A model generated the notes under the pieces. That model worked only from the letters and a program-made list of their open reading frames with translations. It was not told where the DNA came from and did not search any database. From NCBI GenBank assembly GCA_964499705.1, contig CAZCME010000027.1, positions 1 through 53,857 on the forward strand: a DNA stretch of 53,857 nt, read 5' to 3'. Shown in pieces: positions 56 to 19,770 of the stretch; the first letter of the stretch is position 1; every line of letters starts with the position of its first letter. This DNA comes from an uncultured bacterium. Its GTDB lineage: Bacteria > UBA8481. Both the position numbers and the translations under genes were made by a program.

Positions 56-94
56 TTCCACCATCGGCACGTTGGTCGCTTCGCAGGCGGACTA

Positions 95-859: not shown

Positions 860-918
860 GATAGGGCGATAACCGCCTTCGACAATTGATGGCAAGAATA
901 TAGGCGACGCAGCGAGTC

Positions 919-1121: not shown

Positions 1122-1145
1122 AACCACTGATGGAATGACATGATG

Positions 1146-2027: not shown

Positions 2028-2193
2028 CGGGAAGTATCACGGGCTGAGGGCGGCGGAGGGATAGGTTTGCCGCATGACTGACAGGGAACGGTGTCGGCCC
2101 GACGAGATTTGTCGACCATCTGCGTGCGCTTGCAACTTGGACAAGTGCGCTTCAGATGAAATACGGTTGCAATAATAGCTTGGAATATTGGAT

Positions 2194-2721: not shown

Positions 2722-2786
2722 CGCCTGTCATCTGGAAAAGCGAAGATGCAGAAGAATGGGAAACTATACAGCAACGACACCGACGC

Positions 2787-2979
2787 TTCGCCTAACGATT
2801 CAGTTTGTCGAACGTTTTGCACGGCGCGTCGCGTGCGGCATGCCAATAACCTACCCTGGATCATGACCATTACATTATCACAACCGATCCCGCGCAAGAA
2901 GCATTAGCACGCGGCGTGACGTGCAAAAGGTTGCGCGGAGGAGCGAAGCGACGTAGCCGACAAACTGACGTTAGACGAA
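2787..2979. repeat. Cassette-boundary element E2
   Basis: TTCGCCTAACG(AT)TCAGTTTGTCG ... CGACAAACTGACGTTAGACGAA. Confidence 0.9.
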
Positions 2980-3034
2980 AACCAGCGTAGGTAATCATTA
3001 TACCTATCGCGCGCATACCTATGGTAAATGGGTG

Positions 3035-4522: not shown

Positions 4523-4735
4523 AAGTAATTCATAGTATAGAACTTAGTGCCTGATGTCGCCATTGTACATGCGATATGGAATTATGGGTAAGAGGAATCT
4601 TTGCACGCGAAGATGAATGGAAAATTGGATGGGCGCGCAATCTGCGGATAGGAAATAGCACGGTGTAAACGAGAGGGCTGCCATCGATATTCCTACGACG
4701 AGTCATTTTACCAATTCTGGAAGGAGGCGGAGGGG

Positions 4736-5545
4736 TCATTCCGCATGATCCTGATAATCGCCTATTGCTTGAATTAGTTCGCGTACTTCTGTGGGGCGAT
4801 AAATCCGGGGATTCCATGACAAGTGACATTGGGTGCCAATGGATGCCCAGTGGCCGTCGAGAACGATGTAGTCGCAATAGGCGAGAGGAACAACCGAATG
4901 GAAATAGTCCATAGCATGGTTTCTTGTAATCGGGAAATCCTGTTTACAGATTAGCTCTAATATCTTTCCGTTGGTAATATATGCGCGACGGTTGTTGGCG
5001 ACAGCAGAGACGTCGAATGCCTTTCCTTGAAGGCGCGGATTCGCTTTCCACTGAGCACGAGCTTTTGTGAGGAATCGGACAATGTCATCCGAAACAGCTA
5101 TTCTGCGCGGGGTTATCGAATCCTGATATTCCTTCTCGGCAACGGCATCGAAGATTGGGGCGATGGACATAGTGGTCGCGTCGATGAAATGACGGAACTC
5201 CTTCAGGAAACTGATGTCAAACCACACCTCATTTTCCCCCGGGCATAATTCGCGATCTGACACTGCCCCCGGCGTGGATTCAATAGGAATCCAATGTTGC
5301 CCCACACCAGCTATCACATTCTTGATCTTCATCAGGGAATCTGGACTGCTTGCCGAAAACTCCACCAAGTTCATTATGGAAACAGCGAGCGTACCATTCT
5401 TTGCGACGGCTGAAACCAGGTCTGCGAGAAGAGAGATGTCCTTTTCAAGGAGTATGAGCCCACAGTTATCAAGATAGACAAGAGGGCGACGACAAGGAAA
5501 AGAATAGGTCAGAATGCCCTCACTTTTCAAGGAGAGTTCAGGCAT
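4736..5545 (-). CDS. Hypothetical protein, possibly PIN-like nuclease fold
   Basis: ATG 5545 with GGAGG upstream; VYLDN near the N-terminus and DYFH...YCDYIVLD near the C-terminus resemble PIN-like acidic motifs. Confidence 0.55.
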   Translation of the reverse strand: MPELSLKSEGILTYSFPCRRPLVYLDNCGLILLEKDISLLADLVSAVAKNGTLAVSIMNLVEFSASSPDSLMKIKNVIAGVGQHWIPIESTPGAVSDRELCPGENEVWFDISFLKEFRHFIDATTMSIAPIFDAVAEKEYQDSITPRRIAVSDDIVRFLTKARAQWKANPRLQGKAFDVSAVANNRRAYITNGKILELICKQDFPITRNHAMDYFHSVVPLAYCDYIVLDGHWASIGTQCHLSWNPRIYRPTEVRELIQAIGDYQDHAE

Positions 5546-5752
5546 GAGGCCTCCGGCGCTGGCCTTCGCCTGGGACTCGCGATGAGCAACACCTCTCGTT
5601 GAGCTGGGCGGGGCGCTTGCAGAACGGTGTGCGTCGAGGTGAATCATCAAGCGATATTCGGAACGATGCCGTCATCAACATAGAGTGCTGCAAGCGCCAT
5701 GCACGGCGGGCGATGCCAGACAAAGGGGAGTAATCATGCTCTCCCGCGGGTC

Positions 5753-5948
5753 TTCGTCTAACGATGACGATGGCCGAACCTGGAGCCCGGCGCGGCGAAT
5801 GCGACACGATGACAACCCCTCGCGAATCATCGCCACGATCTTATCATGAGCTATCGCCAACTAGAAACCCCTGCATTCGCCGTGACGGGCGGAAGGTTGC
5901 GCGGAGCGGCCAACAGGCCGCGTAGCCGGCCATCGTTCGTTAGACGAA
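5753..5948. repeat. Cassette-boundary element E3
   Basis: TTCGTCTAACGA(TG)ACGATGGCCG ... CGGCCATCGTTCGTTAGACGAA-CT-CCACC. Confidence 0.9.
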
Positions 5949-6023
5949 CTCCACCGTAGGCTTCGTTCCGAGCCCTTGGGCGCATGCATTCAGCAAATCC
6001 GCCTATCGACATAGTCAGTCGAT

Positions 6024-6052
6024 TTGCAAGCAATCGTAAAATCAGAGACAAT
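6024..6052 (+). promoter_or_regulatory. Candidate sigma70 promoter of the PIN toxin module
   Basis: TTGCAA-17 bp-GACAAT ending 6 nt before ATG 6059. Confidence 0.4.
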
Positions 6053-6058
6053 ACGCTT

Positions 6059-6544
6059 ATGAGCACCGTGTATCTGGAAACAACGATTCCGAGCTACCTG
6101 TCCAAAGCAGCGAGCACTGATCAAGTGTTCGAAGTGCATCGGTCGCTGACGTGGCAGTGGTGGAAAGAGTCGCGGCGCGAGTACGACTGTTTCGTTTCAG
6201 AGGCTGTTATCAAGGAACTCTCCCTTGGAACGCCTGACGCGGCTTCGCGCAGACTTGCATTCGTGTCTGAAATTCCGATATTGGCGGTAATGCCGGAAAT
6301 TGAGACGATGGCGCGTGAGTATCTTGGTGCCCTGCGTCTCCCGGACAAGGCGATTATTGACGCGGTCCACCTGTCTTACGTTATCAGGTATCGAGTAGAC
6401 TATCTCTTGACGTGGAACTGTAAGCATCTCGCGAACGGTGTGGTGAGACGCCGACTGCAGGAGTATAATGTCCCTAGAGGCGTTCATCTGCCGGTCATCG
6501 TGACGCCAGAAGAGTTACTGACGTCGAATATGGAGGAATTGTGA
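6059..6544 (+). CDS. PIN-domain (VapC-like) toxin
   Basis: MSTVYLETTIPSYL...SEAVIKEL...DAVHLS...YLLTWNCKHLAN...IVTPEEL. Confidence 0.85.
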   Translation: MSTVYLETTIPSYLSKAASTDQVFEVHRSLTWQWWKESRREYDCFVSEAVIKELSLGTPDAASRRLAFVSEIPILAVMPEIETMAREYLGALRLPDKAIIDAVHLSYVIRYRVDYLLTWNCKHLANGVVRRRLQEYNVPRGVHLPVIVTPEELLTSNMEEL

Positions 6545-6723
6545 TGAGCGAAGATTCCGTGGTGAAGGAAGTCCGAGAGGCGCGTGATGCGTTCGCGAAA
6601 GAGTGCAAGTATGACCCGCACATTATTCTGGCGCGCCTTCGAGAAGATGAGACCAAGCATGGCGAGCGCCTTGTGACGCCCGACGCATTCCAGAAGAAGT
6701 ATCCGACGCGCAATATCGCGTAG
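6541..6723 (+). CDS. Small protein coupled to the PIN gene, putative antitoxin
   Basis: Overlaps the PIN stop codon; EDSVVKEVREARDAFAKECKYD resembles small partners of this PIN group. Confidence 0.6.
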   Translation: MMSEDSVVKEVREARDAFAKECKYDPHIILARLREDETKHGERLVTPDAFQKKYPTRNIA

Positions 6724-6748
6724 ATTCGTACAGTTCTTCATGAACATA

Positions 6749-7240
6749 TTAGCGCCTGCACTCCATTAGCACGGCCTCGCCCCATCGTGTGATAATTGGA
6801 CCGGCAACGAGGATAAAGCCTGCCTTCTCGTATGCTCTCCGCGCACGCATGTTATTAGGATTGGGATCAGTGCCAACAGTTGGAGCGCCCTGCGCAAACA
6901 ATCGTTGCACGTGCGCGCGAACAAACGCGGTGCCATGTCCCTTGCCCAACATGTCGGCCTCCCCAATATACTGATCAATCCCGCGCGCCCCTGACGGCAA
7001 GTACGAGAACGGGTGAGGATCCCAACCATGCACGTCATAGTCTTGAGCAAAGGCGAACGGTCGGTCGTTATGTTCCACGATCCACATGGAAATTCGAGAA
7101 TCCGCTAGTTTCTCTGTTTCCTTCTCGATTTCGGGCGCCCCCCACCACTCGACTACATGTTCTGCGGCTCGCCAGCCAGCCAAGAGCGGCAAATCCGATA
7201 CAATGACAGGACGAAAGCAGTATGCATCAGTCGTGTTCAT
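6749..7240 (-). CDS. GNAT acetyltransferase, AAC(6')-like subfamily
   Basis: HVVEWWG, RGIDQYIGEADMLGKGHG, TDPNPNNMRARRAYEKAGF. Confidence 0.85.
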   Translation of the reverse strand: MNTTDAYCFRPVIVSDLPLLAGWRAAEHVVEWWGAPEIEKETEKLADSRISMWIVEHNDRPFAFAQDYDVHGWDPHPFSYLPSGARGIDQYIGEADMLGKGHGTAFVRAHVQRLFAQGAPTVGTDPNPNNMRARRAYEKAGFILVAGPIITRWGEAVLMECRR

Positions 7241-7275
7241 GGCGTTGACCGGCCATACGATGAGCCTAGCGGGAC

Positions 7276-7359
7276 TTCGTCTAACGTTTCAATAGCCGCG
7301 CATGCACTTCGGCTATTGTGCCGTATCAGGGCATTAGGCGAAGTGCAACTTCGCCTATT
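7276..7359. repeat. Short variant element E4 resembling the array-head site
   Basis: TTCGTCTAAC, hairpin CAATAGCCG/CGGCTATTG, then palindrome ATTAGGCGAA-GTGCAAC-TTCGCCTATT. Confidence 0.7.
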
Positions 7360-7500
7360 TTTTGCAATAGATGAGACAAGAAAAAAATAATTATTCACGT
7401 TGCTTTCCCCCAGCTGAAAGTCATAAATTAAAATTTACCACAGTTCCCATAGATGATTCAAGGGCGGGATCGATCTATGCTGGAGTGCGGCCACGAAAAC

Positions 7501-7815
7501 TCAGACAGCTCGGCGACGACGAAGACGAGTCACTACCTCATCAGCCGTAGCTTTCGCGATTCGAGAGACAAGTGCACTTCTTGAAGGGGTGTCCGCAGCA
7601 AGGCCGCGTTCAATCAGATCTCTAGCGACCGAAGTATAACCGGATGCCCCGCGCTTCAATGCCTCTGCGGATAGACGTTTCTTAACTTCCGGGGGAACGC
7701 GAAGCGTAAGCAGTACCAAGCTTTGTCGGCGCTTCGGCATTCGATATTTTGGCGTCTCATCAAATTCGGCCATCACTTCATTTAGTGACATGTTCTCAAT
7801 TCGTTTTGCCATCAC
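7501..7815 (-). CDS. Putative BrnA/CopG-type antitoxin (RHH DNA-binding)
   Basis: LTLRVPPEVKKRLSAEALKRGASGYTSVARDLI; directly downstream of BrnT-like gene. Confidence 0.75.
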   Translation of the reverse strand: MMAKRIENMSLNEVMAEFDETPKYRMPKRRQSLVLLTLRVPPEVKKRLSAEALKRGASGYTSVARDLIERGLAADTPSRSALVSRIAKATADEVVTRLRRRRAV

Positions 7816-7824
7816 TTCCTCCTT

Positions 7825-8109
7825 TTAACGACCAAACGCGGTAACTGGTCGGATATGCCCGTCGTCAATCTTGTCAATGACGATCACAAGATTTCTACCG
7901 CCCATGGTCTGCCCAGTGACCAAGTATCGGCGTTGATACTTCGCCTCTTTCCTGCGTTTCTTATGCGGCCGAACTTCGTATGCAGAAAGCTCGAATATTT
8001 CATCAACCTCGGTCTGTGCAACGGCGTGCTGCGCGATGTGCTCCAAGTTAACGTCATCCCAATCGAGGATGGGAGTTTCCGACCACGGTGGACGAGGCAT
8101 AGGCGACAT
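7825..8109 (-). CDS. BrnT-family toxin
   Basis: LDWDDVNLEHIAQHAV...EVDEIF...YLVTGQTMGGRNLVIV...IRPVTA. Confidence 0.8.
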   Translation of the reverse strand: MSPMPRPPWSETPILDWDDVNLEHIAQHAVAQTEVDEIFELSAYEVRPHKKRRKEAKYQRRYLVTGQTMGGRNLVIVIDKIDDGHIRPVTAFGR

Positions 8110-8123
8110 GGAACGTAGTACGA

Positions 8124-8152
8124 ATGTTATACGATCGCTCAGTCTGTGTCAA
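8124..8152 (-). promoter_or_regulatory. Candidate sigma70 promoter for brnT/brnA
   Basis: Minus strand TTGACA (8152-8147), 17 bp, TAACAT (8129-8124). Confidence 0.55.
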
Positions 8153-8223
8153 CGGCGAACAAATGAAAATGATGCGCTAGAACCTGAGAAAGGAAAGGCA
8201 AGCGGCTCCGCGGAGCGGTCGAC

Positions 8224-8422
8224 TTCGTCTAACGTTTGAGATTGGCGAACGTTTCGCACGGCGCGACGTTCGCGAGACGAAAATATGCGATGTGAATTCA
8301 TGAGCCGAAACTTATCAGAAACCCTCGAATGAATTCCACCCATGCGAACGGCGTGACGGGCGAAAGGTTGCGCGGAACGGCCCGCAAGGGCCGTGGAGCC
8401 GCCAATCTTCACGTTAGACGAA
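8224..8422. repeat. Cassette-boundary element E5
   Basis: TTCGTCTAACGTTTGAGATTGGCG ... CGCCAATCTTCACGTTAGACGAA-CG-CCACC. Confidence 0.9.
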
Positions 8423-8514
8423 CGCCACCGTTGAAACGTATCAAGCAATTCCGCTGCCATATTCATTCAAGCGCGCCAATCATATATAGAGCGAACACCA
8501 CATTAGACAATGAG

Positions 8515-9039
8515 CTAATCATCACGATCCCGCCTTTGCTCATACCAATCATGGAACTTTTCACATAGGACTTCCGAATCATTGCGGTCGTTCCAATTCT
8601 CCCCATAGCGTTTGCTCAAATACGTATCTTGGGCTGAATTATATCGACCGAGCTCAAAGGCCTCCAGAAACTTATAGTGATTATCTGTAACCCTCTTCTT
8701 GTCGGCTGATTGATGGCACTTCCTGCAAAGAACCTCGACGTCTTCTGGACGTTCGTCATGAAAATGCTCATAAGTCTTGTGATGAACTTCAAGACGTACC
8801 CCGACAGCACCACATTTCTCGCAGCGGCTATTTCGGATAGAGATAATGCCCTTACAAAAAATCCTCCATCTTGCCGACGAGATATACGCCTTGTATGCGT
8901 TCAGGAACTCAGGTGTGCCGTACGTTTTCGCCAATCGATCCTGCTCGATCTGTGTATCGTGTTCACGCCGTGCGCGTCCATTATCCCCCTCGAACAGAGA
9001 GCCTTGATATTTCAATGCCATGAGATTCCGTGTGGCCAA
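8515..9039 (-). CDS. HNH endonuclease
   Basis: YISSARW...CEKCG...LEVHHKTY...VEVLCRKCH; alternative start at 9021. Confidence 0.85.
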   Translation of the reverse strand: MATRNLMALKYQGSLFEGDNGRARREHDTQIEQDRLAKTYGTPEFLNAYKAYISSARWRIFCKGIISIRNSRCEKCGAVGVRLEVHHKTYEHFHDERPEDVEVLCRKCHQSADKKRVTDNHYKFLEAFELGRYNSAQDTYLSKRYGENWNDRNDSEVLCEKFHDWYEQRRDRDD

Positions 9040-9059
9040 GCTGGCGACAAGAGGTCGTC

Positions 9060-9269
9060 TTCGGCTAACGATTGTGATTTCCGAACTTCGCGAAGTGAAA
9101 ATAAACCGTTCATTAACGATAGCCTATCATAGCCGATCGACCTGATCCGGGCGCGCCATTTGCTGCTTTTGCAAATGGCGTGAACGGATCACTCAACAAT
9201 AACCCGCGAAGTTGCGCGGAGGAGGCCCGCTTCTGGCCGACGTAGCCGGAAATCAGCGCGTTAGGCGAA
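9060..9269. repeat. Cassette-boundary element E6
   Basis: TTCGGCTAACGATTGTGATTTCCG ... CGGAAATCAGCGCGTTAGGCGAA-CG-CCACC. Confidence 0.9.
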
Positions 9270-9477
9270 CGCCACCGTATAGTGTATTCAGAGTCATCGC
9301 ACGCGGTATTTGCCAGTCGATACCCGTTATTAGTATTGATGATCCGGCGACTTATTTGCGTATCGGCGCTTCCCATAAATTCGATTAGATTGCGAACACC
9401 ACGTTTGTGCATTCTCCAGATCATGCCATCAGGCCCTATTGTTTCCGCTAGCTCGACCATTGACCATACTGACTTCA

Positions 9478-11034
9478 TCACTGATGCTGCCAACAGTAGC
9501 CGTCAGTGCCTGCACTACGGGAGCAACGATAGCCGCGCCTTGTCGTAGCTAGACAACGGCCATCGCTTTCATCTCGCGCGGGCCGTGAATAAGCAGCTGC
9601 TTCCGCTTCAGCTAATTTGGCCGCCCTCTCGACTTCCTGCTGGCGTCGCCGTTCTTCAACCTCAGCTTTCCGTTGTAGTCTCTTTGCTTCTGCATCAGCT
9701 TTCTCCTGTTGCCGCTTTGCCTCTGCGTAGACCTTCTGCTGTCGCCGCTTTTCCTCAGCCTCAACAATCTGCTGCTTTCGCTGTTCCTCAGCGATAGCTG
9801 ATCTAGCCTTTTGAATTAGTCGTCTCACCTCTGGCGATTGATCCGGTATCGAAATGTCAAAGATCACAGACATTCGTGCGACTTTTTCAGCAAGTGCGGA
9901 ATCTCCCGATGAAAGGTAGTTCTGCAATAAGACTCTGTAAACGTCCGTCAGATGCTCGCGAGAAACATTCTCCGGGGTAGCATGATCCAAATGAGTATTA
10001 TAGAGGATGACAGCAGCATCAGTATCGCCATTCAGCCACAGCGTATAAGCCTGGCTCAGTATCTGGTATGGTGTAGGCTGCTGATGGATGGCAGTAGTGG
10101 AAATAGTGTTTTGCGGGGGGCTTTGACTAGGAGCTGAATTTGATGAGTTCGCTTGCCGCGATGGCTGATAGGTCATTCCCACGATGAAGAAAGTTGCTAT
10201 GGTAATTACGGCTTTAGCTTTTCTACTATGCCATTTGTCTAACCAGAGCCAGATAAGACACACTGGCCAAACGCGGGAAGAAATAAAGAAATACAATATA
10301 AGATAATAAAATCTCCATTTTCCACGATTACGATACTTGTTCAGCTCGCTTGGGGCATCCAACCACGCTGTGAATTGATTCCATAAGCCATTCGAAATTG
10401 ATGAATTCTCTGCGGAAGGCTCTGTGACTTCGCGTTCATTTTCGATTCCGGCTGATGTTGAGTTCTGAGGGCGCTCAGAATCATCCGGATCAATGCCCAT
10501 CAATTCGAGCATATCCTTCGATAAAGTAAAAGCGCGGATCCCAGCGCGCTGGTATTTCTCTGTTTGATTGTTAATCGCAGCCTCGGCCATGTCGATGATA
10601 GCGTCGCAATAATGATCGTCTTTCTCGGCAATTTCCTGAGCAGCGCTGCCAATGGAAACGCGACGCCGAATCTTCGAAATAAGTTCTTTCCGTGCTTCGA
10701 TCGCCGATATTTGTTTTCGGATTTGTGCCTTTTGTTTACTTCCGGCGAGAATATTATTGACTGCTGCTTGGATATTCGTCGCCGCATTGCCTGGTTCCGT
10801 TACGTCCGTATTGGTCGATCGCATTGCCACTATGTATTCTTCCGCGCTGTTCAAATCTTGAATAATCGCCATTTCATTCTCGGAAACTAAACCACCGTTG
10901 GGAAGTTTCTCGATCCCTGTGACTACCCGTGCTGTCGCGATCTCGGAAATATCAGGCTGTATTGGAATCTCATTACTAACGAGGTGAAGATCCTTGAGAA
11001 ATGTCTCGATATTTAACTTATTGGCCACTATCAA
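9478..11034 (-). CDS. Hypothetical membrane protein with coiled coil and C-terminal Cys3-His motif
   Basis: 518 aa; central TM pair; E/K/R/Q-rich helix; ends CLATTRRGYRCSRSAGTDGYCWQHQ. Confidence 0.7.
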   Translation of the reverse strand: MIVANKLNIETFLKDLHLVSNEIPIQPDISEIATARVVTGIEKLPNGGLVSENEMAIIQDLNSAEEYIVAMRSTNTDVTEPGNAATNIQAAVNNILAGSKQKAQIRKQISAIEARKELISKIRRRVSIGSAAQEIAEKDDHYCDAIIDMAEAAINNQTEKYQRAGIRAFTLSKDMLELMGIDPDDSERPQNSTSAGIENEREVTEPSAENSSISNGLWNQFTAWLDAPSELNKYRNRGKWRFYYLILYFFISSRVWPVCLIWLWLDKWHSRKAKAVITIATFFIVGMTYQPSRQANSSNSAPSQSPPQNTISTTAIHQQPTPYQILSQAYTLWLNGDTDAAVILYNTHLDHATPENVSREHLTDVYRVLLQNYLSSGDSALAEKVARMSVIFDISIPDQSPEVRRLIQKARSAIAEEQRKQQIVEAEEKRRQQKVYAEAKRQQEKADAEAKRLQRKAEVEERRRQQEVERAAKLAEAEAAAYSRPARDESDGRCLATTRRGYRCSRSAGTDGYCWQHQ

Positions 11035-11651
11035 CCAAGCGTCATGTATTTATCAAGGAACTTCCGCGTAATGGCGTCCTCAAATACTTTTCGCGCCCGC
11101 TTGATGATATCGTCCGCTTCCAAATTAAAGTCTTTGGCAGATTCCCACGGCACTGGAACTGTTGCGAGCCCTACTGTTCCACCGCCACCCCATCCCATTT
11201 TCCGTGAACTGGAGCACTCCACGCCTTGAGGAAAGCAACTTATGATTTTCTCTTCTGCCTCCAAACCGCCTCGACACCAGACCCAAGGAAACAAACCACC
11301 GTTGTCGAGATAGATACCGATTTGGCGCACATATTTTCCTTCTTCATCTTTGCTTGGCGTACGAAGATCGAGTTTCAGCTGCCAGCTCTTTTGAACGGTA
11401 CTTGTTTTCGGAGATTTAAGCTTGAGCGATTCGATAGTCGCTAAGCGAGCCTGCAAATCCGAAACGCATGCTTCCAGCAAGGTGGCCGCCTCGATACAAG
11501 CCGCGTCACCAACAGCATTCACTTTCTTCTTGATAAGTTCAAGATCAGCGTGATGTTCGACTTCAGGAAGAGATTTTTCTTCCTCGTACAACTGGGTCAT
11601 CTCCGAATAATATTTTAGGTAGAACATGAGTGATTTTCCGATCGCCGCCAT
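11031..11651 (-). CDS. Hypothetical protein
   Basis: 206-aa ORF closely abutting or overlapping neighbours; GGAGG upstream. Confidence 0.7.
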   Translation of the reverse strand: MAAIGKSLMFYLKYYSEMTQLYEEEKSLPEVEHHADLELIKKKVNAVGDAACIEAATLLEACVSDLQARLATIESLKLKSPKTSTVQKSWQLKLDLRTPSKDEEGKYVRQIGIYLDNGGLFPWVWCRGGLEAEEKIISCFPQGVECSSSRKMGWGGGGTVGLATVPVPWESAKDFNLEADDIIKRARKVFEDAITRKFLDKYMTLG

Positions 11652-11653
11652 AT

Positions 11654-12580
11654 TTATTTTCCTCCTGTAAATCCTGATGAGAGATATTCGCTAATACGGT
11701 AAATGTCATCCTTCGTGGTAATATTTCCGCAATTCAGCAGGTAGAGATCTTTCAATACTCCAGTCATGTAGAGCCGTAGAAATTCGATTCCCGGCTTTTT
11801 ATCGAGTTTCGGTAGCTGCGTTCGAAATAGTGACATGAGTGTGATGAATGATATGGGAATCCATTGCGGTCCCCCACATTTGGATTTCGTTTCGGGCATC
11901 CTTCCTTGATCCGGAGTAAGAAAGACAAGGGCATGATGGTCCGAGAAAGAGATGCGTTCTTGAAGCAAGTTCTCATACCTCTCACACTGATCCTCTCCTT
12001 CGTCGGCCTCGACTTTGGCTTCCACGATCACCATCCATTCTTCAATCTTGTCGTCGGGCAGAGTCCATTTCCCGCGCATGAAGATATCGAGTCGATCACG
12101 GGTTTCCCCGCTGATTAACTCACACTCGATGCGCACGTCGTGCAGCTGTGGCTCGTGCGGCATTTCCATAAATATTTTCCCTAAAAATACACGGAGAAGT
12201 GCCTCTTTGAAACCATGGTCTTCATCGGGATTCATCAACCAACCAAGCGTGCGAGTATGGGCGGTTTCGCGAAGACCTAAATCGAGCGTGCCAAAGAGAC
12301 TGATTCGGCAGCGAAGGGGATCGTTGAGAGGTAGGTGTTCATACCAATCCGAACCGCCATCTAGCTTGTCGATCAACGTCAACTTCATGGTCTCAAACAG
12401 GCTCGCTAATTCTGAGTAATCATGATCCGTCAGTGTCTCGAGAAATTCACAGTCACGTGAAAGAGTTTTACTGACGACGTAAAGGTCGCTGACAAGCGCC
12501 TCGACATCTACACGCGTGGGATTGGGCGCGTATGCCAGATCGAGGTCGAAAATGAATTGCTTGGATATAGAGAGATTCAT
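11654..12580 (-). CDS. PD-(D/E)XK nuclease family protein
   Basis: ETAHTRTLGWLMNP...HGF, RLDIF, IVEAKV...EGEDQCERY. Confidence 0.8.
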   Translation of the reverse strand: MNLSISKQFIFDLDLAYAPNPTRVDVEALVSDLYVVSKTLSRDCEFLETLTDHDYSELASLFETMKLTLIDKLDGGSDWYEHLPLNDPLRCRISLFGTLDLGLRETAHTRTLGWLMNPDEDHGFKEALLRVFLGKIFMEMPHEPQLHDVRIECELISGETRDRLDIFMRGKWTLPDDKIEEWMVIVEAKVEADEGEDQCERYENLLQERISFSDHHALVFLTPDQGRMPETKSKCGGPQWIPISFITLMSLFRTQLPKLDKKPGIEFLRLYMTGVLKDLYLLNCGNITTKDDIYRISEYLSSGFTGGK

Positions 12581-12713
12581 GTGAGAACTATATGCTCCAA
12601 CGGTATTGTAGAAAGATTTTATTGTGGGCGAAAGCAGCGCGAGTCACACAAAAGGGGCGTGCACGGCGGGCGCCGCCAATCAAAGGAATGATATCAAGCT
12701 TCGTCTCAGAGAC

Positions 12714-12849
12714 TTCGCCTAATGTATAAGGTTCCGAAGCCGACGCGGAGCGCCACGGAAGAGAGGGGAACCGACGCTTCATCAGGTTCACCGAACGGTG
12801 GCGTGGAGCGTCGGGTTGCGCGCCAGCCGGAAAAGCGACGTCGGGCGAA
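12714..12849. repeat. Degenerate cassette-boundary element E7
   Basis: TTCGCCTAAT...TTCCGAAG...GGCGTG...GTTGCGCG...CGGAA...GTCGGGCGAA. Confidence 0.65.
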
Positions 12850-12941
12850 CTGACCGCCTTCCGTGATCGGGAGCTAATGAGAGAACGTAGCCCAAGCGTG
12901 CAACGAAACGCGCCCATCAGGCAAACCGACACGGAGGTCGG

Positions 12942-13138
12942 TTTGCCTGACGATTCGAATGGCCGAACTTGCAGACCGGCGTGACGTTTGCGGAATGACA
13001 ATGACCATCGCATATCAATTCAACTTCACAACTACACGAGCCATCATGATATAACAACCTCAGCAAACGGCATGACGGTTTGCAAGTTAGCGGGAGCGCC
13101 CGCCAGGGCGCGGACGCGGCCATTCGGCATTAGACGAA
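12942..13138. repeat. Cassette-boundary element E8
   Basis: TTTGCCTGACGATTCGAATGGCCG ... CGGCCATTCGGCATTAGACGAA-GC-CCACC. Confidence 0.8.
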
Positions 13139-13291
13139 GCCCACCCTTGATATGAATCAAGCTCAACCCACGAGAAGTTCATTCAAGCGCTCCGATCATG
13201 CATAAGTGCAGGCAACGGACTGAAATCTGCAGATACACGCAAACCCGTCATATTATTTTCACAATAGAGTAAGTGGATGCCCGTTGCCATA

Positions 13292-14146
13292 TCACTTTTG
13301 AAGGGACTCCAGCCGCCGCTTGCCATCATATGTCCATTTTATACGTACCCGCTGACCGATCTCGACGCGACCGACAGAGGCGGCAAATGTCTTCGTGTCC
13401 GCAATACCGCCGTTACGAGAAGTAAGCTTAGGAACGTAGCGTGTCGCAAATCCGGTATCGGAACGAATATCAATCCAATACTCACCGTCCCAATATTTGC
13501 CAATATCTGTGACAATACCTGATGTTCTACCAGATGTGGCGCGAGGTGTGAGAGTCTCAATCTTCACCATCCATGGCATCAATTCATTGTAATCGTATGA
13601 TTTCCATGAGAGGCGAATTATGCCTTCTGGAGGAATCTTTCCCATAAATTGCATTAGCGCCCTTCTGGCTGCCCTATGTTCGGGCAATTCTTCTCCCACG
13701 TAATAGGGATTGTCAGGAACAGGTGATAACCGATCTGCTACGAATTCAACCATGAGATGCGTACCTTCTTCAGAAATATTGCGGCGAACAGAGGAAGCGA
13801 TACAAATGATGCATTCAGAGTCGATTGTATAGTCTTTGAGACCGGCGTGATCGCGATCGCCCGTTTGACGGATGGCAACTCCCCGGGAAGTAGACTCAGT
13901 TTCAGCTTTCAATGTAATCGAACCAGGAAATAAGCCCGTCCCCACGTTTAGTTCTGTGAGTATTCCAACTATGCAGGCGTCCCATGACTCATTTGGCGTG
14001 GCGTCTTTCGGCGCGTCGTATCGTTTGGATTTATCAATGTCAGCAAGCTCTGATGCTGAAGCCCTTGTAGCAACCATGCCAATGAACAATATCGATACTG
14101 TGTATACCAACACATATCTGGACCGACGACGGTGATTGTCTACCAT
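13292..14146 (-). CDS. Hypothetical secreted protein
   Basis: 284 aa, N-terminal signal-like segment, GGAGG upstream. Confidence 0.65.
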   Translation of the reverse strand: MVDNHRRRSRYVLVYTVSILFIGMVATRASASELADIDKSKRYDAPKDATPNESWDACIVGILTELNVGTGLFPGSITLKAETESTSRGVAIRQTGDRDHAGLKDYTIDSECIICIASSVRRNISEEGTHLMVEFVADRLSPVPDNPYYVGEELPEHRAARRALMQFMGKIPPEGIIRLSWKSYDYNELMPWMVKIETLTPRATSGRTSGIVTDIGKYWDGEYWIDIRSDTGFATRYVPKLTSRNGGIADTKTFAASVGRVEIGQRVRIKWTYDGKRRLESLQK

Positions 14147-14175
14147 ATTTTCCTCCTAATTATAACGATTTGAGA

Positions 14176-14325
14176 TCATTGATGCTGCCAACAATAACCG
14201 TCAGCGCCAGCACTTCGCGAACAACGATCGCCTCGCCTAGTAATAGCAAGACAACGACCATCACTTTCATTGCGGGCGGGCCGTCCATAATTATAATTAT
14301 GGCTATTCCTCGCCATAATCCACAT
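14176..14325 (-). CDS. Small Cys3-His peptide ORF, not in the ORF track; could be the frameshifted tail of the 369-aa gene
   Basis: Translates MWIMARNSHNYNYGRPARNESDGRCLAITRRGDRCSRSAGADGYCWQHQ*, homologous to the C-terminus of 9478-11034. Confidence 0.6.
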   Translation of the reverse strand: MWIMARNSHNYNYGRPARNESDGRCLAITRRGDRCSRSAGADGYCWQHQ

Positions 14326-15412
14326 ATAGAATCTTTATTACTGGTAATCGCCTAACAAAGCGCCCTTCGCCGGTGATGATAGTTTTCATACCAGCGATTT
14401 TCGCAATTATTGTACCGTAGAAATCTGATAGATCGCTGTTAGCATATCTTGAGTTGGCCGCTGATAATATGAAGCCACTTCCGAAAAGATACATATTCTT
14501 ATTATCGGTAAATGGCTCAGATATTTGCCCCTGTAACTGGATAGTTTTACCGTTGAAACCTGAAAGATCTGCAAGAATATCTTCCGGATCAACTTCAGAC
14601 GGCATGAAATAGAATGTTGCAACATCGAGTGAATCAATCCGAGATGGATTTATTTTGCGCCTAATTTTAGCGGCTATTGATTTTCGAGATGCGCCCTCCT
14701 CCATACCGGAGGCAAATGCTATCGCTTTGACAAAGTCACCTTCTGCAAGGGCGCGTTGCGCTTCTACAAGATCCTCTTTTGACTCTTCATGAAGCCCTTT
14801 GCGAAAGGCTACTTTTGCTCGTTCGAGATAGACCAGAGCTTTCTCGGCTTCAATTGAGCCTGAGTAGCGCGAGTTCAACTCGGCGCATAATTCTTCCAAA
14901 TCCGACACCGAACCGAGATCTTCATACCAACTCGCAAGACGAAGAAGCGCTTTAAGATGACGACGGCGCAAGCCCGTCGCTGACGTATCTGAAACATGAA
15001 TGCTTACAGGTTTTCCAAATGCCGTTCTCTCGCTCGATGCGATGTATGACCCATTCAAGCAACAAAGGTCATCGCCGGTCAGAATCATGCTAAGATTCTC
15101 AGTATCTCGCATTACTATAGTCGCGAACGTCATGGCGCGAGTTAGACCACGCTCAGCAATCCGTTTATCAATATATTCGCGAAGCTGATACTGGCTGGAT
15201 AAATTTAGCTCGTCGGAATCAATTCGGATTATCACGTCGCCCGCTTCCAAGTCCGCCACGGGGTTCAATATTCCATTTGGTTTCGGGATACTAGTTACTA
15301 AGAAATCAGCAGTCACACATGTCGGAATTGATAAAATCATGAGAGTCAGGCAAATTCCTACCAATAATGTCCTTATCACAATATCACGCCTCCTTAAAAT
15401 CGTCAGTGTCAA
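14303..15412 (-). CDS. Hypothetical secreted protein with PDZ-like segment
   Basis: Signal-like N-terminus, LEAGDVIIRID, helical region; true start may lie slightly downstream. Confidence 0.6.
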   Translation of the reverse strand: MTLTILRRRDIVIRTLLVGICLTLMILSIPTCVTADFLVTSIPKPNGILNPVADLEAGDVIIRIDSDELNLSSQYQLREYIDKRIAERGLTRAMTFATIVMRDTENLSMILTGDDLCCLNGSYIASSERTAFGKPVSIHVSDTSATGLRRRHLKALLRLASWYEDLGSVSDLEELCAELNSRYSGSIEAEKALVYLERAKVAFRKGLHEESKEDLVEAQRALAEGDFVKAIAFASGMEEGASRKSIAAKIRRKINPSRIDSLDVATFYFMPSEVDPEDILADLSGFNGKTIQLQGQISEPFTDNKNMYLFGSGFILSAANSRYANSDLSDFYGTIIAKIAGMKTIITGEGRFVRRLPVIKILYVDYGEE

Positions 15413-16064
15413 ATCGGAATCCGCAATAACGGCATTTTACGGCCTCGTATTTGATCATTTCTGCACACTCAGGACATTTTTTGTTAGGTTCGCCACTCTC
15501 CACCGGCATTGGCATCGACAGAACGGATACCTTTGCCTCTCGCGTTTTATGCCACTGCTTATCTATCAATGAAAAGGCAAGGTTGACGCCTGCTGCCGCG
15601 GGGAGATACTCTTTAAAAAATGATGAGTTATTTCCTGATGCCCGCACAAATACATTTCCACCCTGTTCAACGCCGGTAAGATCACTGAAGAGGTTTTGCT
15701 CCACGACCATATGCCCCGTGGCAAGCATGCTGGTGGCGATTACTCGCCGCTCAGTAATGACAGAGATACCGTAAACGAGCGGACTACGGAATGATCTTGG
15801 CACTTCGCGCCAAAAGACGCCAATCGGTGGCTCCTTTCTCAAGTCGAGCCCCGGGATTCGCTGTGCGAGAATTACAGGAATATATGGTGGCAATCCTCGC
15901 GCGGTCGGTTCGAAATGCCAGACAACGGAGCTGAAGCAACCGCATCTGAATATTTTTCTGGTTGACATATTATTAGATATATTCCGGTTTCGCGCTCGAA
16001 TCAACATGTAATATCCACCCAATACTGGTGAAATCATAATAAGTATCAGAATAATAGCTACCAT
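15384..16064 (-). CDS. Membrane-anchored protein with C-terminal zinc ribbon
   Basis: N-terminal TM; KKCPECAEMIKYEAVKCRYCG. Confidence 0.75.
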   Translation of the reverse strand: MVAIILILIMISPVLGGYYMLIRARNRNISNNMSTRKIFRCGCFSSVVWHFEPTARGLPPYIPVILAQRIPGLDLRKEPPIGVFWREVPRSFRSPLVYGISVITERRVIATSMLATGHMVVEQNLFSDLTGVEQGGNVFVRASGNNSSFFKEYLPAAAGVNLAFSLIDKQWHKTREAKVSVLSMPMPVESGEPNKKCPECAEMIKYEAVKCRYCGFRFDTDDFKEA

Positions 16065-16167
16065 CTATCTAAACCCTCCGTAAACGAGATACACCTCGCC
16101 GAGTAGACTTGAACCGAGTGGCCGATATCACCACAGAGGGGATGTTATCAAGCGTCGGCACTGACAC

Positions 16168-16306
16168 TTCGCCTAACGATTGTGATTTCCGAACTTGCGG
16201 ATTGGCGCGACGGTTGCCGCTTTTGCAACCGGCGTGACGATTCGCAAGTTGCGCGGAAGCGGCCCGCTTCTGGCCGCTGTAGCCGGAAATCAGCGCGTTA
16301 GGCGAA
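16168..16306. repeat. Cassette-boundary element E9 (short)
   Basis: Arms nearly identical to E6: TTCGCCTAACGATTGTGATTTCCGAACTT ... CGGAAATCAGCGCGTTAGGCGAA-CT-CCACC. Confidence 0.9.
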
Positions 16307-16346
16307 CTCCACCGTTGAGAGATATATAACTTCGGGCACCCGCCCA

Positions 16347-16589
16347 TCACAACAAATATCTCCCGATTTTGAGAGATCCGTGAAATACACCAATAACATC
16401 TACATCCCGATCTTGCTTGATTAAATATGCAATTCGATAATGGCCGTACAGAAGAATCCGAATGTGGCGATCAGTGATATCCCAATACCGATATCCAGAT
16501 TCGGAGAAGTCTCGCAATATTTGAGAGTGGTCGTATATCGATTGGATAAGGTGGAGAGCCACGTCTGGGGTCGCGGCCTCGGCCATCAT
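16347..16589 (-). pseudogene. ParE/RelE-family toxin, N-terminally truncated
   Basis: LRDFSESG...RILLYGHYRIAYLI...VDVIGVFHGS; expected N-terminal strand/helix is missing and no antitoxin is adjacent. Confidence 0.65.
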
Positions 16590-16593
16590 CCTC

Positions 16594-16674
16594 CTCTTAC
16601 GTTGCCGATAAGCGGCCCGAAACGGCGGCGCAACGCGCCGCTGTTGGGGGTCCGTGTTCATCGACGGGTTAGAC
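16594..16674 (-). other. Canonical-type attC site
   Basis: Minus strand GTCTAAC-CCGTCGATGAACACGG...CCGCTTATCGGCAAC-GTAAGAG; R'' overlaps the TAA stop of the upstream gene; 81 bp; R' deviates from GTTRRRY. Confidence 0.75.
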
Positions 16675-17259
16675 CTGTGCTTGCGTAAGACGAATATCGA
16701 CTTCTCGGTCGACGTATTTCCATTCCTCTGACGCACGCAGTTCGGAAAGCAGCCTGTTGAACTCAACCTCATGAATTGGCGCGTATTCGAACCAATTCAG
16801 AAAATCGAACGGTTCATTCTCTGAGAGGTCCCGGCAGTGGTGGAGCTTGCGCGCTACTGCAGGCAAGTACTGAAGCCCGATTTGGACGTGCTTCGACTGT
16901 TCGAAAACGCTCCGGCGTTCGTCTTGCGTGAGATCCCACCAAGCTGCGTTCTTCCGGATCGGTATTAGCGCAGCGCACGTTGCTTCTGGGCGCGCCAGAC
17001 CTTGCTGCTTCGCTACAATTTCATTCTTCTCTGCGCGCATGACATATCGTTCATTGCTGGTTATTCCACGAAGTATCCAGGGTGCATTGGTTTCAGACTG
17101 CACCTCTGAAGCGGATACGACGTTGAGCCTTTTGGCTTCAGGCAGGGGCTCGCCAACTCTGGTTTCGGCTCTGACAATCCGCCAAGGGCCAATGTCTGCG
17201 CCGACGAATGCAAATAATCGTGTATTCGCCATCAAGTTCTGTTCAACGTATCCAGCCAT
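16669..17259 (-). CDS. Chlorite dismutase-family (Cld/DyP-like) heme protein
   Basis: LIPIRKNAAWWDLTQDERR...H...LPAVARKLHHCRDL...FDFLNWFEY...EEWKYVDRE; GAGGAG RBS. Confidence 0.85.
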   Translation of the reverse strand: MAGYVEQNLMANTRLFAFVGADIGPWRIVRAETRVGEPLPEAKRLNVVSASEVQSETNAPWILRGITSNERYVMRAEKNEIVAKQQGLARPEATCAALIPIRKNAAWWDLTQDERRSVFEQSKHVQIGLQYLPAVARKLHHCRDLSENEPFDFLNWFEYAPIHEVEFNRLLSELRASEEWKYVDREVDIRLTQAQV

Positions 17260-17372
17260 AACACTCTCCTCGAAGAATATTGTCTATCCTAATTACAAGC
17301 TACACAACAATGCGTCCAATAAATGCATCTCACCCGCAGGTAGGTCGATATTCAGTCGCCTCCGCGGAGCGG

Positions 17373-17574
17373 TTCGACTAACGTTGTGGCTGTCCGAACC
17401 GGGCGGCGGCACCCAGATCGAGAATCAAAAGCTGACAAGCACCAGGGCAAATGGACAGGGGCGGGCGCGTCGCTTGCGTCTTTTTGCAAGCGGCGTGAAC
17501 GACCCATCATCGCCACGCCCGGTTGCGCGAAACGACCGCAGGGAGTGGAGCCGGACAGCCGCACGTTAGACGAA
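17373..17574. repeat. Cassette-boundary element E10
   Basis: TTCGACTAACGTTGTGGCTGTCCG ... CGGACAGCCGCACGTTAGACGAA-CCC-CCACC. Confidence 0.9.
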
Positions 17575-18074
17575 CCCCCACCAATAAATGCCGTCAAGAT
17601 ATTACGGTTCCTTTCATGAGCGAAGAGCATCAAGAAATACGTTTAGCATTACTTTTTCTCAATGGCAAGAACAACAATTGTAGAAACAATGTAAAATAAT
17701 TCCCCAGCGCTATCAACATTTAATGCAGCCACGGTCATCGCGGTTTGATAGACAACGCGAAGCCACCTTCTTTTCCTGTTCGGCCGCGCGCAACGACGAG
17801 GAAGCGGTGCCGATAGTTAAACAAACGGACCTACGCCACTTACGGCTTCCATCGCGGTCAATGCGATTCATGAAGCATGTCCGATGTTATGGCCACTCGC
17901 GGTAAAGAAGCCATCATCAACAGTTGATGAGAGAGTATAAAACTCATTCGCATGGAATCCACGGTTGCGCATGCCGCGATCATTGGCATTTGATAGATGT
18001 CTTGGAGCAGCTTCCTCGCTGTATTGGAAGAGCTTTCGCATCTGGACTACGCGCCATGATGCATCACTGTGCGC

Positions 18075-18190
18075 TTCGTCTAACGACTGGTCTTCCGACC
18101 GTTGGAGCGGCCATACTTGGTAAGAATCCGCATGGACGGTTGGATACACCCGAGATTTTACAGGTTTGGGCGAACATATGTTCGCCCAAA
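18075..18190. other. Candidate array-head (attI-equivalent) site
   Basis: Last TTCGTCTAAC core before the recombinase, without the usual right arm; followed by a perfect 26-bp palindrome TTTGGGCGAACATATGTTCGCCCAAA (18165-18190). Confidence 0.6.
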
Positions 18191-18309: not shown

Positions 18310-19665
18310 TCATGGACGATGAATTCGCTGGGGGAAGGGTGGTTGGGGGGCGGCATGATGGATAGGATTGATGCCGTTTGCCTGGTTGTTCGATTGTGAT
18401 GGGACTGGATGGGCGGTTGTTCTTGTCTTGGTTGCCTGCGCTGCGGCCGCCGTTTTGCTGTTGGTCGCGGGCGCAGTCACGGGCGAGGTTTCACTGTCGC
18501 TGTCGTGGTATCTGTTGTCGGTTCTTCTCCGCTTGTGCTGGTCGGGTTCGTTCATGGTGGCTTCCAGGGGGCTTTCGATCGCGGCGATGCTGGCGGCGCT
18601 TACGTGGGTGTAGATTTCTGTGGTCTGGCTGGAGCTGTGGCCCAGCATCTCCTGGATGAAGCGGATGTCGGTGCCGGATTCGAGGAGGTGGGTGGCGAAT
18701 GAATGGCGGAGTGTGTGGGGCGTGATCTTTTCGTCCTTGATGCCCATTCTCTGCTGGATGATTTCCTGGAGTCGCTTCTGGATGGCGCGCTCCGTGATGT
18801 GGTGGTGTTCCTCGCTCTTTCTGGATCTGGGGAAGATCCATGTGGTGGCGCCTATGGCCTGGATGTGCTGCTGGATCGCCTTGTAGGCGGTCGGGGAGAG
18901 CATGACGAAACGGTCCTTGCTGCCCTTGGCCTGGCGGACCCTGATCGTGCCTCGCTCCGGGTCGAAGTCGGTGATTTTCATCCTGACCAGTTCGCTTACT
19001 CTCAGGCCCGCGGAATAGGACAGCATCAGGATGGCGCGCTCGTAGGTGCCCCTGGCTTCTTCGATCATGCTGGCGATGAATCTTCTGCTTTTCACGACGG
19101 GGAGACGTCTTTCTTTCCTGGGCCTGGGGAAGTTGTCAGGAACCAGGGGTGTTGCGTGGACTTCGTTGAAGAGGATCTTCAATGAGCAGATGGATTGGTT
19201 CACGTAGGAACGCGACGCTTGTCGCGTTGTGATCAGGGTGTTGATGTACGCCCTGATGTCTTCCGTTGTGTATGTTGCGGGGGCCTTGTTCGTTTGTTCC
19301 AGGAATCGTTTGGCATGGTTCAGATACTCCTTGATGGTCTTGGGGCTGTAGACCTTCATCTTCAAGTGGGTACGAAATCTGTCGATGGCTTCTATCTGGG
19401 GCCTGGTCAGGCCGATGGTTTCGTCAAGACCCCTTTTCCATTCCCGGAAGGCTGGATGTACCATGATGTTGGCGTTGGTTCGCACCTTGCGTAGAAACTC
19501 CAAGAGTTGTTCGCTTTCCCTAGGAAGGCTCCAGAGCCGCTCCGCGTCGTGCCGCTTGACACCTGGCATGCCGCGGAGCTGCGCCTCGAATGCTGGCGAG
19601 GCCTTGATGCCGATTCTTCCGGCGCCACCTCCAGGACCTAACCAGATCTGCCCCCGGCTCACCAT
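18310..19665 (-). CDS. Tyrosine recombinase (integron-integrase-like, lacking the IntI-specific insertion)
   Basis: SAM-like YSPKTIKEY domain; catalytic motifs AGLRVSE, KGSKDR, HTLRHSFATHLLESG, LGH, TEIYTHV; low-complexity C-terminal tail. Confidence 0.92.
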   Translation of the reverse strand: MVSRGQIWLGPGGGAGRIGIKASPAFEAQLRGMPGVKRHDAERLWSLPRESEQLLEFLRKVRTNANIMVHPAFREWKRGLDETIGLTRPQIEAIDRFRTHLKMKVYSPKTIKEYLNHAKRFLEQTNKAPATYTTEDIRAYINTLITTRQASRSYVNQSICSLKILFNEVHATPLVPDNFPRPRKERRLPVVKSRRFIASMIEEARGTYERAILMLSYSAGLRVSELVRMKITDFDPERGTIRVRQAKGSKDRFVMLSPTAYKAIQQHIQAIGATTWIFPRSRKSEEHHHITERAIQKRLQEIIQQRMGIKDEKITPHTLRHSFATHLLESGTDIRFIQEMLGHSSSQTTEIYTHVSAASIAAIESPLEATMNEPDQHKRRRTDNRYHDSDSETSPVTAPATNSKTAAAAQATKTRTTAHPVPSQSNNQANGINPIHHAAPQPPFPQRIHRP

Positions 19666-19671
19666 GGATAG

Positions 19672-19700: not shown

Positions 19701-19710
19701 TATATCAATA

Positions 19711-19750: not shown

Positions 19751-19770
19751 CTTCACTCTCATTCGCTCAA

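Follow-up and report, generated by a model that had tools for sequence, protein, structure and literature searches.

The 53,857-nt stretch of DNA analysed here (the window) comes from an uncultured bacterium and forms the start of contig C27 of the 4.67-Mb genome G000, which is 96% complete. Its minus strand carries, at positions 18310-19665, a gene for a tyrosine recombinase that lies next to an array of gene cassettes separated by palindromic repeats. Our results suggest that this recombinase, which lacks the I2 insertion and is fused to a HARP-like domain, is probably the dedicated integrase of a sedentary chromosomal integron-like cassette array; they place it in a sister lineage of the integron integrases (IntI). 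The attC-like sites of the array are unusually large and branched, and the bacterium is a groundwater member of a candidate phylum. The two sequencing runs that contained more than a small share of the stretch were groundwater metagenomes. The closest proteins to RpoB of G000 from metagenome-assembled genomes are labelled Candidatus Lindowbacteria (78% identity) and Candidatus Hydrogenedentota (77%), all others being below 70%. Four genomes of the same family or order as G000 (G001-G004) were used as near relatives. The features of the recombinase are as follows.

18310..19665, minus strand: tyrosine recombinase gene, 451 aa (open reading frame (ORF); Pfam domains; AlphaFold2 model with a predicted local distance difference test score (pLDDT) of 84)
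19411..19665, minus strand: N-terminal HARP-like domain, residues 1-85, predicted fold b-b-a-b-b-a-b-a (pLDDT ~90; family profile; fold searches)
18811..18861, minus strand: short loop, residues 269-285, in place of the ~36-39-residue insertion (I2 region) of IntI (split 2a3v alignment, TIGR02249, motif spacing)
18313..18549, minus strand: low-complexity C-terminal tail, residues 373-451 (387-451 predicted to be disordered; unconserved; composition skew)

Pfam assigned Phage_int_SAM_4 to residues 95-173 of the recombinase and Phage_integrase (PF00589, E 3e-41) to residues 195-357. R222, K247, H317, R320, H343 and Y352 occupy invariant columns of the family alignment, and we take these residues to be the catalytic set (R-K-H-R-H-Y), as candidate roles. 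A preliminary description, made from the sequence of the window without database searches, had counted 23 residues (FVMLSPTAYKAIQQHIQAIGATT) from KGSKDR to WIFP and had claimed that the recombinase lacks an insertion by which IntI proteins are about 30 residues longer at this point. The count is exact in the translation of 18310-19665 (minus strand), and the claim was upheld by three comparisons. Using phmmer, the recombinase aligned to VchIntIA (2a3v) in two pieces, query residues 98-268 with chain residues 10-181 and query residues 286-368 with chain residues 238-318; opposite 56 VchIntIA residues the recombinase has 17, a gap of ~39 residues in the I2 region. The TIGR02249 profile covered positions 2-180 and 224-314 in the recombinase and skipped 181-223. 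The spacing between the KGxKDR and HxLRHS motifs, measured by motif regular expression on proteins from 401 sampled genomes, is 64 residues in the recombinase and 100 in each of the 27 proteins that score above the TIGR02249 cut-off and could be measured, plasmid IntI1 among them; three further canonical sequences fell outside the expression. The spacing is 58-62 in 30 of the 31 measurable insertion-less relatives, 68 in the remaining one (L033, of an IS91-linked subclade described below) and 63 in a XerD-like protein of the same genome. From the split alignment, the skipped profile positions and the spacing of 64 compared to 100, the sequence indicates that the I2 insertion is absent from the recombinase. 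IntI proteins are indeed longer here, as had been claimed, and the figure of about 30 residues was a slight underestimate, the actual difference being 36-39. In the portion of Escudero 2016 available to us, I2 is described as the domain that accommodates extrahelical bases and enables the integrase to handle folded attC hairpins.

The top NCBIfam match of the recombinase was TIGR02249 (integron integrase), with 213.1 bits against a cut-off of 265, and NF011946 scored 145.5 bits against a cut-off of 435. Scores for XerC and XerD (TIGR02224 and TIGR02225) were also below their cut-offs (170 vs 335 and 167 vs 330 bits), and the archaeal-type XerA model NF040815, from which NCBI has named many members of the recombinase family, was a near miss (211.1 vs 220 bits). 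Among solved proteins, VchIntIA (2a3v) was the best match both in sequence and in fold, and XerA was the second-best match. IntI provides the nearest profile, the nearest solved sequence and the nearest fold, yet the recombinase lacks I2, scores below the family cut-off, falls outside the IntI clade and has an extra HARP-family N-terminal domain. With XerA, XerC and XerD it shares the same two-domain core without the insertion; it differs from them in scoring below all Xer cut-offs, in its HARP-like N-terminal domain and in its association with a cassette array instead of a dif site.

A tree of 69 rows and 292 shared columns was calculated by IQ-TREE quick search with Shimodaira-Hasegawa-like approximate likelihood ratio (SH-aLRT) support, without a XerA outgroup. 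Columns filled in less than 60% of rows were dropped, the insertion and N-terminal domain columns among them, and eight rows were omitted, either as repeats (L004 and L006, equal to L003 and L005, and L020, equal to the query) or as broken or short (L027, L032, L043, L047 and L068). Canonical IntI formed a clade of 30 rows (support 100) that excludes the recombinase. The recombinase, P0001-P0004 and an orthologue in G003 formed a clade (support 100) within a 25-row clade (support 89), itself nested in a 37-row insertion-less sister group of IntI (support 81). Because the search was quick and lacked a XerA outgroup, the deep branches are provisional. Two other Xer-like proteins of G000 (XerC/D-like, on C21 and C5) appeared as a long, distant and separate pair. 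Since G000 encodes this further pair of Xer-like proteins and they branch apart from the recombinase in the tree, the results support the conclusion that the recombinase is not a housekeeping Xer. Alignment, tree and gene neighbourhoods gave no sign of either observation that the preliminary description had named as counting against it, namely that the insertion is present, or that the protein groups with XerD and its orthologues lack arrays. No protein in G000 scored above the TIGR02249 cut-off, and the same search did not find canonical IntI in G001-G004. Canonical IntI above this cut-off was present in 62 of the 401 sampled genomes. In at least 12 genomes (e.g. G099, G065, G358 and G133) canonical IntI occurs together with an insertion-less family member.

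The preliminary description had further reported about 85 extra N-terminal residues, which it read as HARP-like. The Pfam domains indeed begin only at residues 94-95, and residues 1-85 align with the N-termini of homologues of ~360 aa (of 8,000 scored, 6,668 reached E 1e-20 or better); P0002 has its start codon at the same position. AlphaFold2, run as a check that the same description had suggested for these residues, predicted a confident domain (pLDDT ~90). The HARP-like reading was borne out at the family level. Pfam HARP (PF07443) matched 8 of 15 family members, weakly (best E 0.0028), and a profile built from 21 N-terminal domains had as its sole match among 177,635 PDB sequences the HARP domain of SMARCAL1 (4o66, E 0.0029). 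The profile also matched 4,853 cluster representatives (1.84 billion proteins). Ten of these matches, chosen for length and mostly for several domain copies, were scanned with Pfam: six were tyrosine recombinases with three or four copies of the N-terminal domain, three were SNF2 helicases, with Pfam HARP above its cut-off of 25 in two of them (49.5 and 27.6 bits), and one had a SAM-like domain only. In fold searches the domain was nearest to the N-terminal domain of T4 UvsW (Z 6.3, root-mean-square deviation 2.5, 63 residues aligned) and next to that of XPB (Z 5.1-5.2), both scores being rated as middling by the tool, with MutS domain I lower (Z 3.6-3.8). UvsW, XPB and MutS domain I have reportedly been recognised as structural kin of HARP, and HARP and related N-terminal domains are said to bind forked or branched DNA. 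SMARCAL1 4o66 was absent from both fold-search lists, and a search of the ESM Atlas with residues 1-90 gave chance-level scores only (0.80-0.82). As the Z values are modest, the HARP case rests mainly on sequence, which at the family level supports assignment of the N-terminal domain to the HARP family. Compared to the HARP domains of SMARCAL1-type annealing helicases (PF07443, 4o66), T4 UvsW and archaeal XPB, the domain shows family-level homology and a small alpha/beta fold that may be similar to theirs; it differs in that its fusion partner is a tyrosine recombinase instead of an SNF2 motor, and the query copy is divergent. Recombinases of 539-789 aa (P0246, P0249, P0256, P0257, P0259 and P0265) carry three or four tandem HARP-like domains before the core, so that the copy number of the domain in the family varies from 0 to 4.

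The region between the contig start and the recombinase gene contains the following features.

18074..18190, minus strand: attI-like region (R box CGTTAGACGAAG at 18074-18085, GGTCG ~10 nt inward, perfect 26-nt palindrome at 18165-18190)
57..18073, minus strand: ten cassettes of 0.5-3.7 kb (composition; Pfam cargo)
1..56, plus strand: another attC-like site, truncated by the contig start to its right arm (R box 46-55; the array runs off the assembly)
918..1122, plus strand: attC-like site a1, 205 nt (inverted R boxes; fold)
2786..2980, plus strand: attC-like site a2, 195 nt (inverted R boxes; fold)
5752..5949, plus strand: attC-like site a3, 198 nt (inverted R boxes; fold; 78% identical over 201 nt to G003:C1 6220-6420)
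7275..7343, plus strand: attC-like site a4, 69 nt, short form (inverted R boxes; fold)
8223..8423, plus strand: attC-like site a5, 201 nt (inverted R boxes; fold; alignment)
9059..9270, plus strand: attC-like site a6, 212 nt, chimeric (resembling a1 on the left and a8 on the right; fold)
12941..13139, plus strand: attC-like site a7, 199 nt, with degenerate R boxes (accessory repeat before it at 12714-12940; fold)
16167..16307, plus strand: attC-like site a8, 141 nt (inverted R boxes; fold; alignment; consensus fold)
17372..17575, plus strand: attC-like site a9, 204 nt (inverted R boxes; fold of -56.7 kcal/mol; alignment)

With one mismatch allowed, the motif GTTAGRCGAA (the R box) occurs 24 times in the window, compared to 4.9 expected, and 23 of these occurrences lie within 1-18100. 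Elsewhere in the 4.67-Mb genome the motif was found only as scattered singles. Pairing of inverted boxes yielded nine complete elements and one partial element, the right arm at the contig start. Directly behind the recombinase gene, 120 nt from its stop codon, lies the attI-like region, whose R box, 225 nt from the stop codon, is single and has no inverted partner. Its layout, GGTCG-N9-N1-CGTTAGAC, is like one arm of a repeat, and on this sequence evidence the site may function as attI. The final base of its box (G) is shared with the low-coordinate boxes in seven of the nine elements and with the high-coordinate boxes in one of the nine. This match, together with the direction of the ORFs, points to the minus strand as the top strand, with the array proximal to the recombinase gene.

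G+C content is ~50% in the cassettes and ~60% in the flank. Pfam matches identified among the cargo a CAAX protease, a YitT-family membrane protein, a glyoxalase, a trypsin-like protease with TPR repeats, a GNAT acetyltransferase, BrnT and ParE toxins, an HNH endonuclease, a PD-(D/E)XK nuclease and a chlorite-dismutase-like protein. The cargo, which includes toxin-antitoxin genes, is typical of chromosomal integrons. The lone R-box site by the gene and the lower-G+C cargo with toxin-antitoxin genes are likenesses to sedentary chromosomal integrons. The co-orientation of gene and cargo given in the preliminary description was also found: the gene is on the minus strand, the array is at lower coordinates, and all 14 Pfam-matched cassette ORFs are on the minus strand. 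In Treponema attI lies behind the integrase gene, as the attI-like site does here. In an array that reads in this direction the integrase and cassettes are co-oriented, which is unusual but previously known, the available text of Cury 2016 documenting it for an 'inverted integron-integrase group' (e.g. Treponema). The enzymes of that group are, by the definition given in the same text, canonical IntI with the insertion, whereas the recombinase here lacks it.

The long elements are predicted to fold into an R stem of 11-12 bp, an L stem of 9-10 bp followed by CGAAC, a three-way junction and an inner stem. The side hairpin at the three-way junction is preceded by GTTGCGCGGAG, and the inner stem has conserved CGGCGCG/GGCGTGA mismatches. 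One arm has 1-2 extra unpaired bases in all seven long sites with a predicted R stem. RNAalifold, applied to eight sites, gave a consensus fold of 34 pairs. Compensatory changes were present in 15 of these; covariation occurs in the L and inner stems, and the sequence of the R stem does not vary. Covarying stems are an attC signature and, as read from these alignments, argue for intramolecular folding. The compensatory pairing of the L stem in particular suggests selection for such folding rather than for a duplex protein-binding sequence. Rfam contained no relevant family for the repeats. As in IntI integrons, especially sedentary chromosomal ones, the cassettes are flanked by imperfect palindromes that have RYYYAAC/GTTRRRY-type boxes and stems that covary. 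Typical attC sites are 60-130 nt long, whereas the repeats here are mostly ~200 nt and have a three-way junction and a conserved side hairpin.

These folds bear on the possibility that the recombinase services the array by double-stranded Xer-type recombination at duplex R/L cores, as in dif-module exchange, with the HARP-like domain in another role such as fork coupling or regulation. Folded single strands would then play no part, and nothing would have to take the place of I2. We consider this improbable. Without I2 the enzyme does resemble XerA and XerC/D, which act on duplex sites, and the attI-like site mimics one repeat arm in duplex form; IntI recombination of duplex sites is also called an ancestral activity in the available text of Escudero 2016. 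Against this, the L stems differ between sites yet stay paired, with the compensatory changes in 15 of 34 pairs given above, the one-sided bulge is consistent, and the R boxes of a site are 60-200 nt apart, compared to the 28-30-bp core of a dif-type site.

The orthologue of the recombinase in G003 is 49% identical, belongs to the same family and is identical to P0002; it is followed by GTTCG-N9-N2-GTTAGAC and then by the contig end. Arrays of the same ~190-nt element were found in G003 (C1, 1-6420) and G002 (C98, ~2200-5400), and their elements are 70-85% identical to those of the window with no cargo in common. Lineage-specific repeats with unrelated cargo in related genomes are likewise a feature of chromosomal integrons. 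Behind the G003 box, a stretch of 67 nt matches the beginning of the fourth cassette of the window at 83%, which hints, from sequence, that one cassette start lies at different array positions in the window and in G003. Neither G001 (86% complete) nor G004 (94% complete) yielded the R-box pattern. Comparison of the array with contigs of three runs revealed many branch points at the repeats, with breaks and branches in the two groundwater runs.

A scan of the genome collection with the single recombinase protein gave no relatives, and a metagenome scan with the clade's N-terminal alignment gave one locus at 28% identity, which was not used. The family profile matched 46 of the 401 sampled genomes at E 1e-60 or better. 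At least 12 of 49 matches, the window's own excluded, end 600 nt or less from a contig end on the 3' side, a lower bound since this distance was readable except for nine plus-strand matches. On the 5' side a contig end lies within 600 nt for one of the 49 and within 1000 nt for three. An excess on the 3' side would be expected if a repeat array or a variable junction lay just downstream. At eight loci (L018, L021, L022, L023, L026, L027, L028 and L031) two palindromic repeats of ~20 nt directly after the stop codon are followed by an (A/G)AC-N1-2-GTT(A/G) box, and two of these contigs stop at or just past the box. G301, a complete genome, has behind the box a cassette ORF, a candidate DUF262-like gene from reading its translation, and then a near-perfect hairpin whose end repeats the 14-nt box of the attI-like site; G099 is similar, with a cassette ORF and hairpin after the box. 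A hairpin scan detected a single site in G301 and another in G099; close to the gene in G375, G330, G350, G043 and G032 it detected none. No repeat family emerged when the flanks in G301, G375 and G099 were scanned for direct repeats. The preliminary description had raised the question of what adjoins the orthologues of the recombinase, and both the G003 orthologue and wider relatives adjoin attI-like sites or cassette arrays.

The same neighbourhoods help to weigh the alternative that the recombinase is a bystander, either Xer-like or the integrase of a mobile element, and that the array is a cluster of attC sites lacking integron-integrases (CALIN) which came from, or is serviced by, a lost or unassembled canonical IntI. 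This would be compatible with an array that runs off the contig and with the commonness of canonical IntI (62 of 401 sampled genomes), and nine insertion-less members of the sister group are coupled to IS91 transposases rather than to arrays. We nevertheless regard it as unlikely. No canonical IntI was found in G000 or in the four nearest genomes searched, and the R box of the array stands alone 225 nt behind the stop codon of the recombinase, a layout shared by the G003 orthologue. The attI-like site directly behind the gene recurs in eight distant relatives, two of them with a cassette and matching hairpin, and contig ends occur far more often 3' of the gene than 5' of it. It is very improbable that the repeats are palindromic intergenic elements (repetitive extragenic palindrome-like or miniature inverted-repeat transposable element-like) spread in a low-G+C island next to an unrelated recombinase: elements of ~200 nt that are 60-90% similar to one another do look more like a repeat family than attC sites of 60-130 nt, but the motif outside the locus occurs only as scattered singles, the terminal box is common to the elements and the lone site beside the recombinase, the elements separate co-oriented ORF units with typical cassette cargo, and related genomes keep the elements and none of the cargo, like chromosomal integrons.

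Several observations weigh against our interpretation of the recombinase as a HARP-fused integrase of the array. No recombination event was observed, and junction molecules would not be visible in contigs. The array continues past the edge of the contig, and a second recombinase at or beyond its far end is possible in a genome that is 96% complete. The query's own N-terminal domain had no Pfam HARP match at E up to 1 and lacks the first conserved tryptophan and the F-x-Y motif; its fold-search Z of 5-6 is in the middling range of the tool, and Foldseek gave no match to it at E 0.001 or better. Two array-associated relatives (L028 and L031, 285-286 aa) have no N-terminal domain, so HARP may be accessory and not strictly required. 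The pairing of nine insertion-less sister-group relatives with IS91-family transposases means that a missing insertion alone is not a mark of an integron-like enzyme. Finally, if the cargo strand is the top strand, the extra unpaired bases are on the R'/L' arm, whereas in canonical attC sites they are on the R''/L'' arm. In integrons it is the folded bottom strand that recombines, and the extrahelical bases determine which strand is used. This difference may reflect a different strand choice, or the polarity assigned here may be wrong. A different strand choice may fit an enzyme without the I2 pocket for extrahelical bases, given the role of I2 in the available text of Escudero 2016.

Taken together, these results are consistent with a model in which the recombinase would bind the R box GTTAGRCGAA at the attI-like site 225 nt behind its own stop codon, and the same R box at the base of each attC-like element. 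The elements would act as folded single-stranded hairpins of ~200 nt, each made up of the R stem, a 1-2-nt asymmetric bulge, the covarying L stem, the three-way junction with its side hairpin, and the inner stem. Cassettes would be inserted at the attI-like site, excised between attC-like sites and read away from the recombinase, on the recombinase strand. On this model the recombinase would catalyse cassette exchange with folded single-stranded DNA as its substrate. The HARP-like domain might read branched or single-strand/double-strand junction geometry in place of I2 and extrahelical bases, a part of the model to which we give a little less than an even chance. The preliminary description had likewise suggested that the domain might provide recognition of single-stranded or fork DNA where the insertion is missing, a role that would agree with the DNA-binding properties of HARP domains.

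Some of the attC-like sites have further features. In a6 the left 165 nt are 84% like a1 (916-1080) and the right 70 nt are 93% like a8 (16246-16315), with the switch near the conserved GTTGCGCGGAG motif at the three-way junction. On the plus-strand flanks, CCACC lies 2 nt beyond the high-coordinate R box in six of ten sites, with near-matches in three more, and four attC-like sites have a motif like GGRATGWTATCAAGC ~20 nt ahead of the low-coordinate R box. Because conservation extends beyond both R boxes, the crossover point is not readable from sequence alone. A small 'inside-out' hairpin (box, stem, loop, stem, inverted box) follows the a7 R box (window 12714-12968), and a similar one follows the G003 attI-like box (L008, G003:C83 3-69) with 83% identity and compensatory stem changes. 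The unit at 12754-13138 is kept as a block in G002:C98 3348-3733 (71% identity over 390 nt).

The longest cassette (9270-12941, 3.7 kb) contains three co-oriented ORFs of 518, 206 and 308 aa, the last being the PD-(D/E)XK nuclease, and may be a multi-gene defence-type cassette. The chlorite-dismutase-like gene (16598-17225) has a 98.6% identical copy (8 differences in 557 nt) on a 5.5-kb contig of run X21. That contig has much higher depth, both flanks are different, and the breakpoints are not at attC-like sites. A near-identical gene elsewhere suggests recent gene sharing with another organism of the same community.

The IS91-linked subclade mentioned above (L029, L033, L037, L038, L040, L041, L044, L045 and L046) belongs to the same insertion-less sister group of IntI as the recombinase. 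It differs in forming a separate subclade without the N-terminal domain and in having a transposase gene instead of an attI-like site. The IS91-family (Y2_Tnp and Zn_Tnp_IS91) transposase gene lies within a few bases 3' of the recombinase gene, a separate pairing; it was identified by Pfam at one locus and by the conserved zinc-motif coding sequence at the others.

The low-complexity C-terminal tail of the window's recombinase, described as such from the start, has a pLDDT below 50 at residues 387-451, and the DNA composition here is strongly skewed (bin 18001-19000). The tail is unconserved: in the family alignment only P0003 and P0004 have tails, and these are unrelated. It is probably the translation of a skewed spacer. 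A run of CTCACT-type hexamers (19706-19760) lies between the recombinase start codon (19665) and a rhomboid-like gene (19771-20448) and overlaps a promoter-like match, such matches being at chance frequency in the scan. In that scan of 15900-20000, promoter and terminator sites were no commoner than in shuffled sequences.

We found no description in the literature of HARP-fused recombinases with cassette arrays. The available text of Cury 2016 reports 50 recombinases without the IntI-specific region near attC sites. Four of these, which had fewer than three attC sites, are called 'intermediate between IntI and Xer' there and were concluded not to be IntI; they may belong to the HARP-fused family. 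The same text indicates that the standard detection tool classes recombinases of this kind near attC as non-integron integrases. We tentatively propose, with somewhat more doubt than belief, that HARP-fused insertion-less recombinases with co-oriented attI/attC arrays constitute a second ancient integron lineage, sister to the IntI integrons and spread over many phyla, which would have been missed by searches that need the IntI-specific region. In this lineage the HARP module, not I2, would read the folded site, and folded-strand cassette capture would have arisen before or independently of I2.

The window presents a ten-cassette array with an insertion-less, HARP-fused enzyme as its only candidate integrase, in a layout that recurs in unrelated genomes. 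A whole class of cassette platforms may therefore be uncounted. With a living intermediate or sister form, the idea that integrons originated from Xer-like ancestors can be put to the test, and a natural alternative means of recognising structured single-stranded DNA could be studied and used.

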